Source: an uncultured Dehalococcoidia bacterium
Lineage (GTDB): Bacteria > Chloroflexota > Dehalococcoidia > Lucifugimonadales > UBA1127
Reading direction: 5' to 3'
NCBI GenBank assembly: GCA_964499855.1
Contig: CAZCPU010000001.1
Location: forward strand, 1 to 54,845
DNA length: 54,845 bases
Positions 2,835 to 45,157 of this stretch are shown here, one piece after another. The translations under genes and the position numbers were made by a program. The first letter of the stretch is position 1; each line of letters begins with the position of its first letter. Below the pieces are notes generated by a model that was not told the DNA's origin, made no database searches, and saw only the letters and a list, made by a program, of their open reading frames with translations.

Positions 2835-2905
2835 CTTGAAGAGCTGCCCGTCCCCCGGGGTGGGGCATTTGACCGAGCCATATTGAAATACACCGCACAC
2901 GAATA

Positions 2906-2934
2906 TTGCAGGCCATGCCCAGTTCTGCTAAAAT
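2906..2934 (+). promoter_or_regulatory. candidate promoter of the nusA operon
   Basis: TTGCAG (2906-2911), a 17 nt spacer, then TAAAAT (2929-2934), about 90 nt upstream of nusA. Confidence 0.4.
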
Positions 2935-2965
2935 CCTGCCCAAGAGCACATGCTCGATATACTTG

Positions 2966-2994
2966 AAAAGTGGGCTCGACCCACTTTTTTCTTT
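2966..2994 (+). terminator. terminator-like hairpin in the nusA 5' leader (possible attenuator)
   Basis: AAAAGUGGG-CUCGA-CCCACUUUUUUCUUU. The stem is short, is extended by A/U pairs, and is followed by a U-tract. It lies between the candidate promoter and the nusA start. Confidence 0.4.
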
Positions 2995-3024
2995 GATATA
3001 GGCCTGTAGGGGGAGGTCAGGGGA

Positions 3025-25479: not shown

Positions 25480-26826
25480 TCAGGGTTCGGAACGTCCCGC
25501 CTTCGGAGAGGCAGTGGGAATGGGAGGGCGTCGACAGTTATAGTACAGCAGGCCGGACGCGCCGTACATGAGCATAAACGTGAAGATGACCGCCCCGTAA
25601 CCGGACGTGTCCGAGACCCAACCCGCGAAGACCGGCCCCGCGGCGGCGAAGGGCGTCGTGCCCATACTGAGCATCCCCCAAAGCCGCGCGTAGTGGCTGT
25701 TGCCGAAGTACTCGCCAAGGATTGCGCGATTCAACGCATGCGCCCCCTGTCCAAAGCCAAAGAGGACGATGAAGACGTACACAAGTGGCGCTTCATGCAG
25801 CAGCAACAGGAACAGCGATAGCGACTCGAGACCGACGATGATCCCCATGACCTTGCGACGCAGGAAGAGGTCGCTAATGTAACCGCCCGCCAACGCACCG
25901 ATGACTCCCATGCCAGCCATGATGCCAACCAAGAATCCCGCCTCGACGCTCGTATACCCATAGCGGTCCTGCAGCATTGGCGACATGTGCAGCACCATGC
26001 CAGCCTGGCTCATTTGCCTGAGCGCAAGGGCGCCCATGAAGAACCAGAATGCATGCGCCCGAAATGCCTGACCGACGGTGAAATTCCTGCCGGGGACCTG
26101 GACCAGCGCGTGGGGCTTTCCGTCGGCTTGCCGGGTGTCCAGCAATGCCGTGGGAGCGACGGGAGGCTCCGCAGGGTCGCCGTCGGGCAGGAGGCCCATG
26201 TCCTGCGGCCGGGTACGGATGAGCTTGGTGATCGGCATGACCAGCACGAAGATCGCTATGCCGGTGACCACCGCGCCGGTCTCCCAACCCCAACGCGCGA
26301 TGATGAAGGCGAGCATCGGGGCGAGGACGACGCCGCCCATGGCCTGCGACGCCATGCCGATGCCCATTGCACGGCCCTTCTTGCGATTGAACCAGTTGTT
26401 GATCGTCGCCCAATTTGGCGCGAATCCCCCGATGTTCGCGCCCAGGGACACCATGAAGGTCCAGGTGACGATGAACAATAGCAGGTTGCGGGCAACGAGG
26501 CCAAAGAGGACCATGCCGAGGCCCATGAGGAACATGCCCACAATGATGGGCGGCCTCGGACCAAAGCGATCGATGAAGTAGCCGACGATGGGAGCGAGCA
26601 CGGTGTTCTCGGCTCGCGCCAAGGCAATCGCGAGGGACGTGACGGTGCGGCTGATGCCCAACGCCTGCGACACGGGGTTGAAGAAGACTGTGGCGCCGTA
26701 GTTGGTGACACCGGAGGAGAAGCCCATAACCAAGCAGTTGGCCGCAAGAATGAACCAACCGTGGAAGATTCCTCGGCGTCTGCCCTCTTCGTGGGGTATG
26801 TGCTGGGGCGAGTCGCTGATTGCCAT
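25480..26826 (-). CDS. MFS transporter
   Basis: I chose the internal ATG at 26826 (MAISDSPQHIPHEEGRRRGIFHGWFILAANCLV). The protein is polytopic and hydrophobic. Confidence 0.75.
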   Translation of the reverse strand: MAISDSPQHIPHEEGRRRGIFHGWFILAANCLVMGFSSGVTNYGATVFFNPVSQALGISRTVTSLAIALARAENTVLAPIVGYFIDRFGPRPPIIVGMFLMGLGMVLFGLVARNLLLFIVTWTFMVSLGANIGGFAPNWATINNWFNRKKGRAMGIGMASQAMGGVVLAPMLAFIIARWGWETGAVVTGIAIFVLVMPITKLIRTRPQDMGLLPDGDPAEPPVAPTALLDTRQADGKPHALVQVPGRNFTVGQAFRAHAFWFFMGALALRQMSQAGMVLHMSPMLQDRYGYTSVEAGFLVGIMAGMGVIGALAGGYISDLFLRRKVMGIIVGLESLSLFLLLLHEAPLVYVFIVLFGFGQGAHALNRAILGEYFGNSHYARLWGMLSMGTTPFAAAGPVFAGWVSDTSGYGAVIFTFMLMYGASGLLYYNCRRPPIPTASPKAGRSEP

Positions 26827-39816: not shown

Positions 39817-40203
39817 ATGACTGAGCACCCCAGCGAATTGCGCTACACGATTGAGCACGAGTGGGTGCGTGTCGAGGATGACGGCACGGCAACAATTGGC
39901 GTGACATTCTTCGCGCAGGACCAGCTCGGCGACGTCGTATACATCGTCCTGCCGGCGGTGGGCACCACGCTGCAGGCGGGGGCCAGGATGGGAGAGATCG
40001 AGTCGGTCAAGTCAGTCTCCGACCTCTACGTCCCGGTGAGTGGCGAGGTACTCGAGACCAACCAGGACGTCATCGAACACCCGGAGCGCGTCAATGAGGA
40101 CCCGCACGGCGCGGGGTGGATGGTCCGCGTCCGCATGTCCGACCCCTCGGAAGTTGACCGGCTGCTCACCAACGAGCAGTACGACAGTGCAATAGCAAGC
40201 TAG
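39817..40203 (+). CDS. gcvH: glycine cleavage system H protein
   Basis: The lipoyl-lysine motif GEIESVKSVSDLY is present. Confidence 0.95.
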   Translation: MTEHPSELRYTIEHEWVRVEDDGTATIGVTFFAQDQLGDVVYIVLPAVGTTLQAGARMGEIESVKSVSDLYVPVSGEVLETNQDVIEHPERVNEDPHGAGWMVRVRMSDPSEVDRLLTNEQYDSAIAS

Positions 40204-40217
40204 GACGCAACTCAGAG

Positions 40218-41552
40218 ATGTCAACTCCCTTCCCGCACTCCTACCTCCCGCACACTGAAGCACAGCGCCTGGAGATGCTGGCCGCAATCGGGGTGACCTC
40301 CGTCGACGAACTCTTTGCCGACATCCCGGGCGCCTTCCGCAATCCGGAGATATCCCTTCCGCCCGCGTTGACCGAACTCGAGCTCCTCCGGGAGATCGGA
40401 GGGCTCGCCAAGCGCAATGCCGTCCCGGGAGAAGTCCCTTGCTTTGTGGGAGGTGGAGTCTACCGGCATTTCATCCCGAGCGTCGTCGGCGCGATGATCT
40501 CACGCGGGGAGTTCCTCACCTCGTACACGCCATACCAGCCCGAGGTGAGCCAGGGCACCCTCCAGGCCACGTACGAGTACCAGAGCATGATCTGCGAGAT
40601 CACCGGCATGGAGGCCGCCAACGCAGGCATGTACGATGGCGCGAGCTCCCTTGCGGAGGCCGCGCTCATGGCATGCCGCGTTACGGGCCGGCACAGCGTC
40701 GTTGTTCACAACACGGTCAACCCCCGCTATCGAGCGGTCGTCGACACGTATCTTCTGCCCCAGGGCATCGAGGTCATCAGCGCCGCGCCCGGCGAGGAGT
40801 CCATATCGGATTCAACAGCATGCGTGCTGGCCCAGTACCCGGACTACTTCGGCGTGGTACGCGACCTTACCGCGCTTGCGGATGCCGCCCATGAAGCGGG
40901 CGCGCTGCTCGCAGTCAGCGCCGACCCTGTTGCGCTCGGCATGTTTCGTGCGCCGGGGGAGTTCGGCGCTGACATAGTGACGGGGGAGACGCAGCCCATC
41001 GGCGTCAATTTGAGCTTCGGCGGCCCATACGTTGGTTACTTCGCATGCCGGATGACTCACATCCGGCAGATGCCGGGACGGATAGCCGGGCGCACTGTCG
41101 ACCACGAAGGACGCGTCGGTTACGCGCTCACGCTTCAGACCCGGGAACAGCATATCCGCCGGGAGCGCGCGACCTCCAACATCTGCACCTCGGAGGCGCT
41201 CATCGCTACGGGCACTGCTGTCTGTCTCGCCGCACTGGGGCCGGACGGATTGCGCCGGATGGCTGAACTCAGCTACCAGAAGGCGCACTATGCCGCAGCG
41301 GAGATTGCGGCGTTGGAAGGTTACGCAATTGCGGAGCGTGGCCCATGGTTCAATGAATTTGTGCTCAGGTGCCCGCGAACTGCGAATGAGACCAACGCCG
41401 CCCTGTGGCAGCGCGGCATCATCGGCGGAATTGACGTGGGTGACGCAGTCGAGAATGGCTTGCTGCTCAGCGTCACGGAGATGCATACCCGCGCCGAGAT
41501 TGACGCCCTCGCGGCGGCGCTCTGCGACATCCAACGGGAGGGAGCGCGATGA
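40218..41552 (+). CDS. gcvPA: glycine dehydrogenase (decarboxylating) subunit 1
   Basis: The family N-terminus YLPHTEAQRLEMLAAIGV is present in a 444 aa protein. Confidence 0.92.
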   Translation: MSTPFPHSYLPHTEAQRLEMLAAIGVTSVDELFADIPGAFRNPEISLPPALTELELLREIGGLAKRNAVPGEVPCFVGGGVYRHFIPSVVGAMISRGEFLTSYTPYQPEVSQGTLQATYEYQSMICEITGMEAANAGMYDGASSLAEAALMACRVTGRHSVVVHNTVNPRYRAVVDTYLLPQGIEVISAAPGEESISDSTACVLAQYPDYFGVVRDLTALADAAHEAGALLAVSADPVALGMFRAPGEFGADIVTGETQPIGVNLSFGGPYVGYFACRMTHIRQMPGRIAGRTVDHEGRVGYALTLQTREQHIRRERATSNICTSEALIATGTAVCLAALGPDGLRRMAELSYQKAHYAAAEIAALEGYAIAERGPWFNEFVLRCPRTANETNAALWQRGIIGGIDVGDAVENGLLLSVTEMHTRAEIDALAAALCDIQREGAR

Positions 41553-43024
41553 CGACCGACGGCGTCTCTGCACAGCGCGCGCACCACTCGCTGTGGGACC
41601 TCTCCGCACCGGGCCGATCCGGCGTACGGCTGCCGGAGTCGGACGTCCCCGCACAGCCGATGCCGGATGCCGATCTCCTTCGCAAGGAACTTCGGCTGCC
41701 GGAAGTCTCGGAGTTGGACGTCGTGCGGCACTACACGCGGCTGGCGCAGAAGAACTTCTCCGTGGACACCAACTTCTACCCGCTCGGCTCCTGCACCATG
41801 AAGTACAACCCCAAGATCAATGACATGATAGCGTCGCAACCCGGCTTTTCGGGCATACACCCGCTGCAGCCGGAGGAGACGGTGCAGGGGGCGCTGGAGC
41901 TCATGCACCGGCTGCAGCGGGACCTGCAGGCCATTACCGGCATGCCGGCTGCCTCCCTCGCCCCCCTCGCGGGAGCTCACGGCGAGCTTGCGGGCGTCCT
42001 GATGATCAAGGCCTACCATGAAGCGCGCGGCGAGTCCGAACGCAAGGTCATGCTCATCCCGGACAGCGCTCACGGCACCAACCCGTCATCCGCCTCGATG
42101 GGCGGGTTTGAGGTGGTGTCACTCCCATCGGACAGCACAGGAAGCGCGGACCTCGCCGCAGTGGAGGCCGCGGCAAATGACCGCCTCGCCGGCCTGATGA
42201 TCACCATTCCGAACACGCTTGGCCTATTCAACCCTAACATCGCGCGCATCTGCGAGATCGTTCACAACGCGGGCGGACTCGTCTACGGCGACGGCGCCAA
42301 CATGAATGCCCTGCTGGGCCGCGCCCGCACCTACGACCTCGGTTTCGACGTCGTGCACCTGAACCTTCACAAGACAATGAGCACGCCCCATGGAGGCGGC
42401 GGCCCCGGCGCGGGCCCCGTCTGCGTCAGGGAGCGGCTTGCTCCATACCTGCCCGCACCCGTCGTCGAGAAGATTGCGGACGCCGAGGGGGTGCGCTACC
42501 GCTTCGCCACACCGCCGCACTCCATCGGCGCGATGTCCGCCGGGCACGGGAACTTCGGCGTGCTGGTGCGCGCATACACGTACCTTCGAGCACTCGGAGC
42601 GGACGGCCTGCGCCAAGCCAGCGGCGACGCCGTGCTGAACGCCAACTACCTGCGACGCAAGCTCGAGCATATCTATCGCGTCGCAGTTGACCGCATTTGC
42701 ATGCATGAGGTCGTCTTCACGGGGCGGCCGCAACGCGAGAAGGGCGTGAAAGCGCTCGACATATCCAAGCGCATGATCGACTACGGCGTGCACCCGCCCA
42801 CAATGTACTTCCCGCTCATCGTTGAAGAAGCGCTGATGGTCGAGCCCACGGAAACGGAGAGCAAGGAGACACTGGACGCCTTCATCAAAGTCATGACAAC
42901 CATCGCAAGGGAAATCGAAGAGAGTCCAGAGCTGTTGCGCGAAGCGCCGCACGTCACTCCGGTCGGCCGGCTCGACGAGGCGCGGGCCGCGAGGCAGCCG
43001 GACCTGCGATGGCAAGCGCCGTAG
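41549..43024 (+). CDS. gcvPB: glycine dehydrogenase (decarboxylating) subunit 2
   Basis: The PLP-lysine region HLNLHKT is present. The start overlaps the end of gcvPA by 4 nt. Confidence 0.92.
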   Translation: MTTDGVSAQRAHHSLWDLSAPGRSGVRLPESDVPAQPMPDADLLRKELRLPEVSELDVVRHYTRLAQKNFSVDTNFYPLGSCTMKYNPKINDMIASQPGFSGIHPLQPEETVQGALELMHRLQRDLQAITGMPAASLAPLAGAHGELAGVLMIKAYHEARGESERKVMLIPDSAHGTNPSSASMGGFEVVSLPSDSTGSADLAAVEAAANDRLAGLMITIPNTLGLFNPNIARICEIVHNAGGLVYGDGANMNALLGRARTYDLGFDVVHLNLHKTMSTPHGGGGPGAGPVCVRERLAPYLPAPVVEKIADAEGVRYRFATPPHSIGAMSAGHGNFGVLVRAYTYLRALGADGLRQASGDAVLNANYLRRKLEHIYRVAVDRICMHEVVFTGRPQREKGVKALDISKRMIDYGVHPPTMYFPLIVEEALMVEPTETESKETLDAFIKVMTTIAREIEESPELLREAPHVTPVGRLDEARAARQPDLRWQAP

Positions 43025-43039: not shown

Positions 43040-43069
43040 TTGACACCCCGAGAGTCCCGACCCTAGAAT
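43040..43069 (+). promoter_or_regulatory. candidate promoter for tRNA-Gly
   Basis: TTGACA (43040-43045), an 18 nt spacer, then TAGAAT (43064-43069), 11 nt before the tRNA. Confidence 0.55.
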
Positions 43070-43080
43070 GAGTTTCCACC

Positions 43081-43155
43081 GCGGGCGTAGCTCAGTGGTA
43101 GAGCCCTTGCTTCCCAAGCAAGTTGTCGTGGGTTCGACTCCCATCGCCCGCTCCA
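43081..43155 (+). tRNA. tRNA-Gly (CCC), CCA encoded
   Basis: Acceptor GCGGGCG/CGCCCGC, anticodon arm CTTGC-TTCCCAA-GCAAG, T arm GTGGG-TTCGACT-CCCAT, then TCCA. Confidence 0.9.
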
Positions 43156-44023: not shown

Positions 44024-44057
44024 GGGACATTCTCCTTCGTTTCGTGGTTCGATTCAC

Positions 44058-44092
44058 AAAAAAATCGCCCTGGCTCATCCGCCGGGCGATTG
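44058..44092 (-). terminator. intrinsic terminator inside the cysH 5' leader (attenuator)
   Basis: The minus strand reads AAUCGCCC-GGCGGAUGAGCCA-GGGCGAUU followed by UUUUUUU, ending ~35 nt before the cysH start. Confidence 0.7.
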
Positions 44093-44121
44093 CGTGGTCT
44101 CTGCGTACGTTCTACGTATTC

Positions 44122-44220
44122 TTAGCCGCTCAGACCCTCCATCCCGGCGGAAGCGGGCATACAACAGCAACAACACACGCAGCTGTTCGCCATGGTCGCT
44201 ATCTGCCGGTTGCGGGACAT
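44122..44220 (-). CDS. candidate Cys-rich leader peptide (32 aa) of the cysH attenuator
   Basis: My own translation is MSRNRQIATMANSCVCCCCCMPASAGMEGLSG, followed by a stop. The codon run TGC GTG TGT TGT TGC TGT TGT occupies 44161-44181. An AAGGAGG SD lies 12 nt upstream of the ATG. The ORF sits between the candidate promoter and the leader terminator. Confidence 0.55.
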   Translation of the reverse strand: MSRNRQIATMANSCVCCCCCMPASAGMEGLSG

Positions 44221-44251
44221 ATTCCCAGTGTTCCTCCTTGACTTGTGAAAG

Positions 44252-44280
44252 AGGATACAATCGCAAGAGCGCCGTGTCAA
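44252..44280 (-). promoter_or_regulatory. candidate promoter of the cysH leader
   Basis: The minus strand reads TTGACA (44280-44275), a 17 nt spacer, then TATCCT (44257-44252). Confidence 0.5.
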
Positions 44281-44362: not shown

Positions 44363-44656
44363 ATGCTTGCGGTCGTTCAGCGACATGAGCTTGGCGGCGA
44401 CGAGCATGTGCTGCCCCTGCTATTGGAGGCGTACCCCGTCGACACCGTCGGGCAGCTGCACTACTTTCTCGTTTTCTGGTGCCAGGCCGGCCGCGAGGCT
44501 ATGACCGCAGGGATGGGCAAGGAGCTCGTGGGGGACATGCTCGCGTTGCTCTCCGAGTACGGCATCGACCCTGACCGCTGCCGTCTGGAGGAGTCGGACG
44601 GCGACGAAGACCCCAGCATCGGCCCTCCGCCGGACTGGTACAACCGCAGGGACTAG
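44363..44656 (+). CDS. hypothetical protein (97 aa)
   Basis: I chose the ATG at 44363 because an AGGAGG SD lies 8 nt upstream. I recognise no motif in the protein. Confidence 0.45.
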   Translation: MLAVVQRHELGGDEHVLPLLLEAYPVDTVGQLHYFLVFWCQAGREAMTAGMGKELVGDMLALLSEYGIDPDRCRLEESDGDEDPSIGPPPDWYNRRD

Positions 44657-44671: not shown

Positions 44672-45157
44672 CTAGGCGTCGCCGGCGAAGTGCGCGATCT
44701 CCACGAAGGTCCTCGCGTGGTCCGACCAGTCGAACAGCTTTGCCTCCACCACGCGCTCCGCGTCGATACCCACCACGAGTTGCTGAACGGGGAACATCTT
44801 GCCGTCGCCCCATGGATCGGAAGCGTTCTCAATGTCCACGTTGGAGAGGTACGAGCGGCCGTTGGGGTGCGAGTGGTAGATGATTCTCGGAGGCTCTTCC
44901 GAGTCTATGCCCTGGTTGAAAGCGAGCACGTCCTCCTTGCTGAAGACGTAAGCGGTCTCCTCGCCGCGCATCGACGCGGTGGGGTGGATTCCCTGTGACT
45001 GGGCGTTGACGCAGGGGCGGGCCTTCGTCACGGAGGCGCCGTCGCGGGGGCCGGCGAGCCAGCCGCAGCACTCGGCGGGAAAGGACTCGCGGGCATGGGC
45101 GTACACCTCACGGAGTATGTGTTGCGGGATCGCCAGGGGCGCGGGAGCATCGGACAT
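44672..45157 (-). CDS. JAMM/MPN+ metalloprotease-like protein (Mov34 family)
   Basis: ECCGWL (the Glu region) and HSHPNGRSYLSNVD (the H-x-H-x7-S-x2-D JAMM motif) are present. Confidence 0.8.
   Translation of the reverse strand: MSDAPAPLAIPQHILREVYAHARESFPAECCGWLAGPRDGASVTKARPCVNAQSQGIHPTASMRGEETAYVFSKEDVLAFNQGIDSEEPPRIIYHSHPNGRSYLSNVDIENASDPWGDGKMFPVQQLVVGIDAERVVEAKLFDWSDHARTFVEIAHFAGDA

Follow-up and report, generated by a model that had tools for sequence, protein, structure and literature searches.

A predicted cysteine-sensing leader-peptide transcription attenuator upstream of cysH in an uncultured Dehalococcoidia bacterium

Introduction

What decides whether an RNA polymerase that has set out towards cysH will ever reach it? 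The question is raised by a 54,845-nt stretch of DNA from an uncultured Dehalococcoidia bacterium of the phylum Chloroflexota (assembly GCA_964499855.1, contig CAZCPU010000001.1, positions 1 to 54,845; hereafter the window), in which the gene for phosphoadenylyl-sulfate reductase, cysH, follows a predicted promoter, a short open reading frame (ORF) with a run of Cys codons, and an intrinsic terminator, all on the minus strand. The arrangement is best read as a ribosome-mediated (leader-peptide) transcription attenuator that likely couples cysH to the supply of charged tRNA-Cys. The anatomy of the leader, its conservation, two mutually exclusive RNA structures with their energies, and the lack of room for a second promoter were computed in silico. 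A preliminary examination of the same DNA, here called the sequence-only reading, had already listed the promoter, a Shine-Dalgarno (SD) sequence, a 32-codon ORF, the Cys run and the terminator, and all of these are present upstream of cysH (Table 1).

A Cys-codon leader upstream of cysH

The minus strand of positions 44330-43990 was read directly to check each element. Cys codons fill 6/7 positions of a run that sits 12 codons before the stop codon of the leader ORF. Chance alone does not account for the run: the whole window should contain TGYTGYTGYTGY 0.15 times, and the probability of at least six Cys residues in a given 7-residue stretch is ~9e-11 at the window Cys frequency of ~1.5%. Two other TGY runs in the window, at 25797 and 35576, were considered as leaders and rejected, since both lie inside long coding regions; the one at 25797 is read in the Leu frame (LFLLLLH).

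The reading frame of the repeat can be assigned by comparison with related sequences, 11 of which enter the alignment, frame, pairing and fold counts given here and below. Among the three frames, the Cys frame alone has a start codon 3' of the predicted transcription start site (TSS) in 11/11 members checked; that codon is ATG in 10/11 members and TTG in the relative L003. The Leu-frame and Val/Ala-frame readings of the repeat were rejected, as in most members they have no start codon past the predicted TSS. The T/C changes that distinguish the runs are silent in the Leu frame, so the frame call rests on start and stop codons, not on substitutions.

The leader promoter predicted by the scan matches the consensus at 10/12 positions with a 17-nt spacer, and the 2.5-kb region around it holds 3 promoter-like sites, against 0.4 expected from shuffles. 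Transcription would start at about 44246-44244, ~7 nt past TATCCT and ~24 nt 5' of the leader ATG. The -35 hexamer TTGACA is unchanged in 11/11 aligned relatives and is also found in L077; the -10 hexamer of the relatives retains TA...T, with changes confined to the positions between (TATGGT, TATGCT, TACCAT, TAGCAT, TATGAT). Functional -10 elements usually vary in this way. A counterpart of the leader SD, (A)GGAGG or AAGGAG at a spacing of 12-13 nt, is present in L002, L004, L005, L006 and L073, and the L001 group has AGG 5 nt ahead of the leader ATG.

The product of cysH is assigned by PF01507 (E=1e-48) and NF002537 (279 bits, cut-off 154). Only 34 nt, with no predicted promoter among them, separate the U-tract of the terminator from the cysH start codon; the gap leaves no room for a promoter, and expression of cysH therefore depends on read-through. 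The neighbouring ORF upstream (44363-44656, plus strand) is divergent, so only the transcript from the leader promoter can reach the terminator. The gene appears to be monocistronic and to be the one under regulation.

Conservation among related Dehalococcoidia

CysH-based retrieval, with one genome per species, supplied the genome contigs and places the window in a Dehalococcoidia (Chloroflexota) lineage. The leader ORF with its terminator precedes cysH in 12 related Dehalococcoidia sequences: L001-L007 and L044 on genome contigs, L072-L074 from metagenomes, and L077. CysH identity to the window protein is 82-90% in seven metagenome-assembled genomes and 62% in L007. Within this family the run holds 5, 6 or 7 Cys codons, TGT and TGC interchange, and length changes come in whole codons. 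The N-terminal half of the peptide is divergent between subgroups and also carries whole-codon insertions and deletions. Between the last Cys codon and the U-tract the alignment shows almost no variation; the run lies 9 nt from UCCGCCGGG, and UCCGCCGGG lies 18 nt from the stop codon, both distances being fixed in 11/11. The peptide tail, MPAS[AV]G.E.L.., is fairly conserved in the clade, and its distal part tolerates non-synonymous changes.

Protein databases are of little use for mapping the family, because a 53-aa upstream-extended leader query retrieves a single matching protein (32 aa) among 5.8 billion. No protein family was found for the leader peptide. That sole peptide-like database protein led to an ENA metagenome contig on which one gene caller had annotated the leader ORF, again of 32 aa and 97% identical, ahead of a PAPS_reduct gene. 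A search of metagenomes with the leader DNA pattern TGYTGYTGYTGYATGCCNGCNTCCG returned 5 stretches, 3 of them true family members (L072-L074), all before cysH; the remaining two, L075 and L076, are chance matches to the pattern. The same scan, whose exact pattern is narrow, gave no evidence of the leader family before genes other than cysH.

Two mutually exclusive RNA structures

The terminator hairpin has a predicted energy of -18.8 kcal/mol (RNAfold) and was missed by a simple terminator scan because of its 13-nt loop and inner stem. The sequence-only reading had placed it with its U7 tract and its end at 44058, both of which stand; its 5' end is at 44091 instead of 44092. Terminator pairs are formed in 100% of cells over the 11 sequences.

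The competing structure is more extensive than had been supposed. Region 2, the 5' strand of the antiterminator, contains the segment UCCGCCGGG (44151-44143) already proposed for that role in the sequence-only reading, which had the helix overlapping the terminator arm by only 3 nt. Region 3 takes in most of the 5' arm of the terminator, as well as its inner stem and a portion of the 3' arm, so that the antiterminator helix of ~19-21 bp covers most of the terminator hairpin and excludes it. An inner hairpin brings regions 2 and 3 together in the folds. When either structure is imposed on the RNA that extends from the last Cys codon through the terminator stem, the energy is -44.3 kcal/mol for the antiterminator and -38.3 kcal/mol for the terminator; the RNAalifold consensus of the Cys-run-to-terminator segment is the antiterminator, whose pairs are formed in 96.6% of cells over the 11 sequences.

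The substitutions at these sites point to the RNA. Every paired change in the antiterminator columns is C-to-U opposite G, with a G.U pair kept, and this includes a non-synonymous GCC-to-GUC (Ala-to-Val). Four-fold degenerate sites that are paired are either invariant or show only C-to-U opposite G, whereas T, A and G all occur at the one four-fold degenerate site left unpaired (GCN, alignment column 15). This pattern at paired versus unpaired sites argues for RNA-level, not peptide-level, constraint on the segment that encodes MPASAG. In the inner hairpin one pair (columns 32-73) has changed on both sides, from G-C to U-A, in L007 and L073. Upstream of the run lies region 1, which the folds predicted for each subgroup pair with region 2 in a hairpin that has the Cys run towards its apex. 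No Rfam model matches the leader at E up to 10, and in 7 related or analogous loci Rfam finds only a tRNA at the gathering threshold, with no riboswitch or T-box.

Ribosome-dependent switching in folds

To represent a ribosome on the leader, only the RNA 3' of it was folded, with the 3' edge of the ribosome set at A site +13 from the known size of its footprint. When the A site is on any of the first four codons of the run, the probability of the antiterminator is 0.96; on the last three codons it is 0.78, 0.14 and 0.10; and with the ribosome at the stop codon the probability of the terminator is 0.95. The switch is reproduced in 10/11 family members. Ribosome-masked equilibrium folds of the whole transcript were set aside as misleading, as they allow pairing across the ribosome and of the U-tract with the 5' end, and a test of 5' arm pairing before the 3' arm exists did not discriminate between the states.

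The potential to form an antiterminator was compared with dinucleotide shuffles, taking as the measure the energy that the 5' half of the terminator gains from the post-Cys segment of the leader before the 3' arm exists. It exceeds the shuffles in the window (p=0.022) and in six independent leader families combined (p=0.005, Fisher). This energy-gain test was used in place of a short-arm duplex test, which is under-powered in GC-rich sequence; in the latter the best antiterminator partner always begins 4-15 nt past the Cys run.

A plausible course of events can be assembled from these elements. Transcription would begin ~7 nt past TATCCT, and a ribosome would start on the 32-codon leader. When Cys-tRNA(Cys) is scarce, the ribosome would stall at the first of the six Cys codons, with its 3' edge within or at the end of the Cys run, and would leave region 2 free. 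Region 2 (GCCCGCUUCCGCCGGGAUGG) could then pair with region 3 (UCGCCCGGCGGAUGAGCCAGGGC) as the latter emerges from the polymerase, the inner hairpin aligning the strands, and the resulting helix of ~19-21 bp would use up most of the terminator and permit read-through into cysH. When Cys is plentiful, the ribosome would reach the stop codon and cover region 2 together with the 5' side of the inner hairpin; the terminator with its U7 would form, and transcription would end 34 nt before cysH. The Cys-replete state probably relies on the ribosome covering region 2, because region 1:2 pairing is not supported (see below), and it assumes the customary spacing of ribosome and polymerase. From the computed features we infer the TSS, translation of the ORF, stalling, the timing of ribosome versus polymerase, and any role of region 1.

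Cys-codon leaders in other lineages

Leaders of similar design stand before cysH elsewhere. In L009, from a different Dehalococcoidia lineage, a non-homologous poly-Cys short ORF (MTYTHSICLCCCTHEGAGR...) with a strong intrinsic terminator lies upstream of cysH. A poly-Cys short ORF with a terminator is likewise found in the Vicinamibacteria/Acidobacteriota loci L038, L047, L049, L050, L054, L055, L056, L059 and L063, where the units precede cysH or a small operon ending in cysH. The leader peptides begin MKMRAQRPCCCCCIEAPEASG... in L038, MSRSRARATCCCCMEAHAG... in L050 and L054, and MTTPLTTCACCCCCMEPRGL... in L055, L056, L059 and L063. Across 71 cysH loci, the Cys-run motif has 18 upstream matches, 17 of which are true leaders (the match at L037 is false), and 5 matches in the other ~890 kb of strand. 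No Cys leader was found at the Paenibacillus, Nitrospirales and other cysH loci of this set.

The -10 elements of the Vicinamibacteria leaders (TACAAT, CACAAT, GACCAT) end ~5-13 nt before the start codon of the short ORF, so close that the leaders look leaderless or nearly so, as in mycobacteria. In L038 a four-region design is explicit (CCGGAGG / CCUCCGG / CCGGAGG / CCUCCCGG), and the fold switches.

Several further observations belong to these loci. L009 (~2850-3000) and L038 (~2860-3000) have an extra ORF of ~38 aa that separates the attenuator terminator from cysH, and in L038 this ORF overlaps the cysH start codon. The membrane gene before cysH in L055, L056, L059 and L063 looks TauE/SafE-like, as read from its translation. 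The Chloroflexota cysH loci L010 and L060 are without a Cys short ORF and share a TATTCTTGACT...ATCGACT-like motif just upstream of cysH (L010, 2900-3000; L060, 2920-3000), possibly a repressor operator and thus a different mode of control in the same phylum. Finally, a Met codon follows the Cys run directly in both phyla (window, 44160-44158; L054, ~2499; L059, ~2007), giving the junctions CCCCC-M-P, CCCC-M-E and CCCCC-M-G, and the antiterminator strand begins there.

One may ask whether a poly-Cys leader with a terminator is a cross-phylum strategy, a 'Cys ribulon' for cysH operons of Chloroflexota and Acidobacteriota that arose repeatedly or was transferred, and whether the CCCC(C)-Met junction answers a need beyond codon hunger. 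The need may be pausing that depends on nascent poly-Cys and Met, or the Cys-rich peptide may act as a redox or metal sensor. This wider proposal, which rests on motif recurrence in two leader families only, is speculative and rather improbable.

Alternative explanations

Termination could be under the control of a protein or of an undescribed ligand-binding RNA, or it could be constitutive and partial, with the Cys run an incidental UG-rich repeat. The link to translation is, after all, a prediction and the run is of low complexity; at equilibrium several relatives and analogues fold into the terminator, and in the same phylum the cysH leaders of L010 and L060, which have no Cys ORF, use other control. 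A repeat of no consequence would nevertheless hardly keep the Cys frame and its start codon in 11/11 members when the other frames lack starts, nor would it recur in independent lineages, always in an ORF, before a terminator and before cysH. The distances that separate region 2 from the run on one side and from the stop codon on the other are also fixed and match the footprint of a ribosome, whose size is common knowledge, and no Rfam riboswitch or T-box was found. Control that bypasses the ribosome is thus very unlikely.

The short ORF could also be a gene in its own right, encoding a Cys-rich micropeptide that binds metal, takes part in redox chemistry or is the precursor of a modified peptide, in which case its place before cysH would merely reflect gene neighbourhood and cysH would be expressed by leaky read-through. 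Such a gene would have its own predicted promoter, SD and terminator, as the ORF does, and the fairly conserved C-terminal tail and the one annotation by a gene caller would fit it as well. The conserved part of the tail, however, is the antiterminator strand, under a constraint of the RNA type, and the distal tail accepts non-synonymous changes. What the non-homologous leaders elsewhere have in common is limited to the Cys run, the terminator and a position before cysH; the peptide belongs to no protein family, with its one database match among 5.8 billion; and cysH is left without a promoter of its own in the 34-nt gap. A stand-alone micropeptide gene is a slightly poorer candidate still. 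The least probable alternative, and a very unlikely one, is a translational attenuator of the mycobacterial type, in which the leader hides the cysH SD until a ribosome stalled on the Cys run frees it: this is the only Cys short-ORF mechanism to have been dissected experimentally (bioRxiv 10.1101/834739) and the title of the sequence-only reading did say 'translational', but the cysH SD lies 20 nt past the U-tract and in folds pairs weakly with nearby bases only, not with the Cys tract or the leader; there is also a conserved canonical terminator with U7, and 12 codons separate the Cys run, which is not C-terminal, from the stop codon.

The preferred reading, leader-peptide control of transcription termination, has its own difficulties. 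The promoter, the TSS, translation of the leader and premature termination are predictions. The TGY run is, as the sequence-only reading had cautioned, a low-complexity repeat, prone to slippage, and its T/C changes are synonymous in the Leu frame too (TTG/CTG); the SD-to-ATG spacing of 12 nt, a caution raised at the same time, is indeed long, although conserved. No pair has changed on both sides in either the terminator or the antiterminator over the 11 sequences, the clade being too conserved to yield covariation there. Complementarity of regions 1 and 2 does not rise above shuffles (z -1.3 in the window, -1.9 to +0.9 in the family). With the ribosome at the stop codon, its trailing edge would coincide with the end of region 2, and the masking of region 2 in the Cys-replete state would depend on assumptions about timing. 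L006, which has two additional G.U pairs, favours the terminator at equilibrium wherever the ribosome stalls. Among the analogues, L047, L049, L050, L054 and L009 also retain the terminator at equilibrium, so antitermination in these five would have to be kinetic.

These points temper the attenuator interpretation advanced in the sequence-only reading and leave it well founded, on the conservation of the leader in orthologues, its independent analogues and the ribosome-masked folds. Three checks named there were carried out: the Cys run and terminator recur in orthologous leaders (12 relatives, and independent lineages as well), folding with the ribosome masked gives the antiterminator/terminator switch that the model requires, and the Rfam scan offers no alternative explanation. 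The label 'translational' has to be replaced, as the cysH SD is not sequestered by the leader and attenuation would act on transcription.

Genomic setting of the cysH unit

Table 1. Features of the cysH leader and transcription unit in the window, with the corresponding units in other cysH loci (locus coordinates).
Feature	Position	Strand	Basis or remark
-35 hexamer TTGACA, predicted leader/cysH promoter	44280-44275	-	promoter scan
-10 hexamer TATCCT	44257-44252	-	promoter scan; 17-nt spacer from -35
Leader ORF SD, AAGGAGG	44239-44233	-	12 nt before ATG
Leader ORF, 32 codons + TAA, MSRNRQIATMANSCVCCCCCMPASAGMEGLSG	44220-44122	-	sequence reading, ORF list
Region 1, CCGGCAGAUAGCG, possible anti-antiterminator strand	44209-44197	-	pairs with region 2 in folds
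Putative regulatory Cys run, TGC GTG TGT TGT TGC TGT TGT	44181-44161	-	codons 14, 16-20
Region 2, antiterminator 5' strand, GCCCGCUUCCGCCGGGAUGG	44158-44139	-	2 nt past last Cys codon
Inner hairpin, GGUCU...AGACC closing helix, variable apical part	44136-44096	-	holds stop codon
Intrinsic terminator, AAUCGCCC-GGC...GCC-A-GGGCGAUU + U7	44091-44058	-	8 bp + inner GGC/GCC of 3 bp; U7 at 44064-44058
Region 3, antiterminator 3' strand, UCGCCCGGCGGAUGAGCCAGGGC	44089-44067	-	
cysH SD, AAGGAG	44037-44032	-	20 nt past U-tract
cysH, phosphoadenylyl-sulfate reductase, 261 aa, TTG start	44023-43238	-	PF01507, NF002537
Terminator-like hairpin after cysH, 14 bp, end of unit	43213-43182	-	
Vicinamibacteria/Acidobacteriota units	L038 2662-2850; L047 2763-2960; L049 2789-2940; L054 2460-2640; L055 1961-2150; L059 1965-2150		

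Downstream of cysH lies a convergent tRNA-Gly(CCC) gene (43081-43155, plus strand) with an 11/12 promoter match at 43040-43069, and the 14-bp hairpin between the two genes could serve as terminator for both transcripts. The relative L001 also has a convergent tRNA gene directly downstream of cysH. Beyond the tRNA gene, gcvH, gcvPA and gcvPB occupy the plus strand (39817-43024), as read from ORF translations; with glycine-cleavage genes on that side, cysH stands alone, outside any sulfur-assimilation cluster. On the other side, the divergent ORF at 44363-44656 (97 aa) has an SD of its own and matches no Pfam or NCBIfam family. Just upstream of the cysH unit, a Prok-JAB/MPN protein is encoded at 44672-45157 on the minus strand, with a weak, below-cut-off match of the desampylase type. 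Desampylase-type proteases act on sulfur-carrier proteins, and this neighbour may be linked to sulfur metabolism in that way.

Relation to known attenuators

The trp, his, leu, thr, ilv and pheA attenuators of Enterobacteria share with the cysH leader a short ORF close to the promoter in which codons for the end product form a run, an antiterminator and a terminator that exclude each other, a decision made by the position of the stalled ribosome, and a structural gene that needs read-through. The window element differs from them in its Cys codons, in regulating cysH alone and in its Chloroflexota (Dehalococcoidia) host. Its antiterminator has a 5' strand within the leader ORF itself, past the Cys run and before the stop codon; no pause hairpin or anti-antiterminator formed by regions 1 and 2 could be demonstrated, and no Rfam leader model matches.

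Closer in what it senses is uORFC-8-2 of Rhodobacterales, where an upstream ORF with Cys codons and an intrinsic terminator have been predicted ahead of cysS (Brewer et al. 2021, PMC8632094). Like the cysH leader, it is a ribosome-mediated, Cys-tRNA-sensing transcription attenuator predicted by purely computational means, with an AUG-start ORF, Cys codons from near codon 14 (the position of the first Cys in the window leader), and a terminator stem that leads into a U-run. It has two tandem Cys codons, whereas the cysH leader family has 5-7, and its structures are different too, the two being compared by description. It also precedes cysS in Alphaproteobacteria, whereas the present leaders precede cysH in Chloroflexota and Acidobacteriota.

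In Actinobacteria, Cys leader peptides before cys operons were predicted without conserved terminators (Seliverstov et al. 2005, PMC1262725), and the polycysteine leaderless short ORFs of mycobacteria, the 'Cys ribulon', have been shown by experiment to be Cys-responsive attenuators, translational at the dissected locus (Canestrari et al. 2020, bioRxiv 10.1101/834739). The cysH leader resembles both groups in that an unannotated short ORF ahead of a cysteine or sulfur operon holds two or more Cys codons in a row, and it shares with the mycobacterial leaders the use of ribosome stalling at Cys codons as the sensor (here predicted) and the existence of multiple, independently evolved leaders. 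The mycobacterial short ORFs are leaderless, whereas that of the window is SD-led, with a predicted TSS ~24 nt upstream of the ATG. The Cys tract of the mycobacterial and actinobacterial leaders is at or near the C-terminus in featured and predicted examples, and the run in the window is internal. Stalling in the dissected mycobacterial case unmasks a downstream SD, whereas the window has a canonical terminator/antiterminator pair. The M. smegmatis locus Ms4527 belongs, as we take it, to the sirA-cysH operon.

The window element would work like a classical trp/his-type attenuator and respond to the signal that the mycobacterial and Rhodobacterales elements sense, but it is a member of neither family. 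Since Cys-codon leaders had already been described (PMC1262725; bioRxiv 10.1101/834739 (= Mol Microbiol 2020); PMC8632094), their novelty as implied in the sequence-only reading was overstated. No published Cys leader before cysH in Chloroflexota or Acidobacteriota was found in a literature search that did not reach most subscription-journal papers.

Implications

The principle was already known from other bacteria, and the cysH leader is a new example, not a new mechanism; the general understanding of attenuation is unchanged. What the leader adds is an extension of Cys-sensing leader-peptide attenuation to the Chloroflexota (Dehalococcoidia) and Acidobacteriota (Vicinamibacteria), where it was previously unreported, and cysH as a new target, in the classical form based on transcription termination, the dissected mycobacterial case being translational. 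It is also a reminder for annotation, as leader ORFs of 28-38 codons are almost never called. The element is compact and could be tested in heterologous or cell-free systems. For uncultured lineages that are genetically intractable, it provides a signal that can be read from the sequence and predicts that cysH would be induced when Cys-tRNA becomes limiting.

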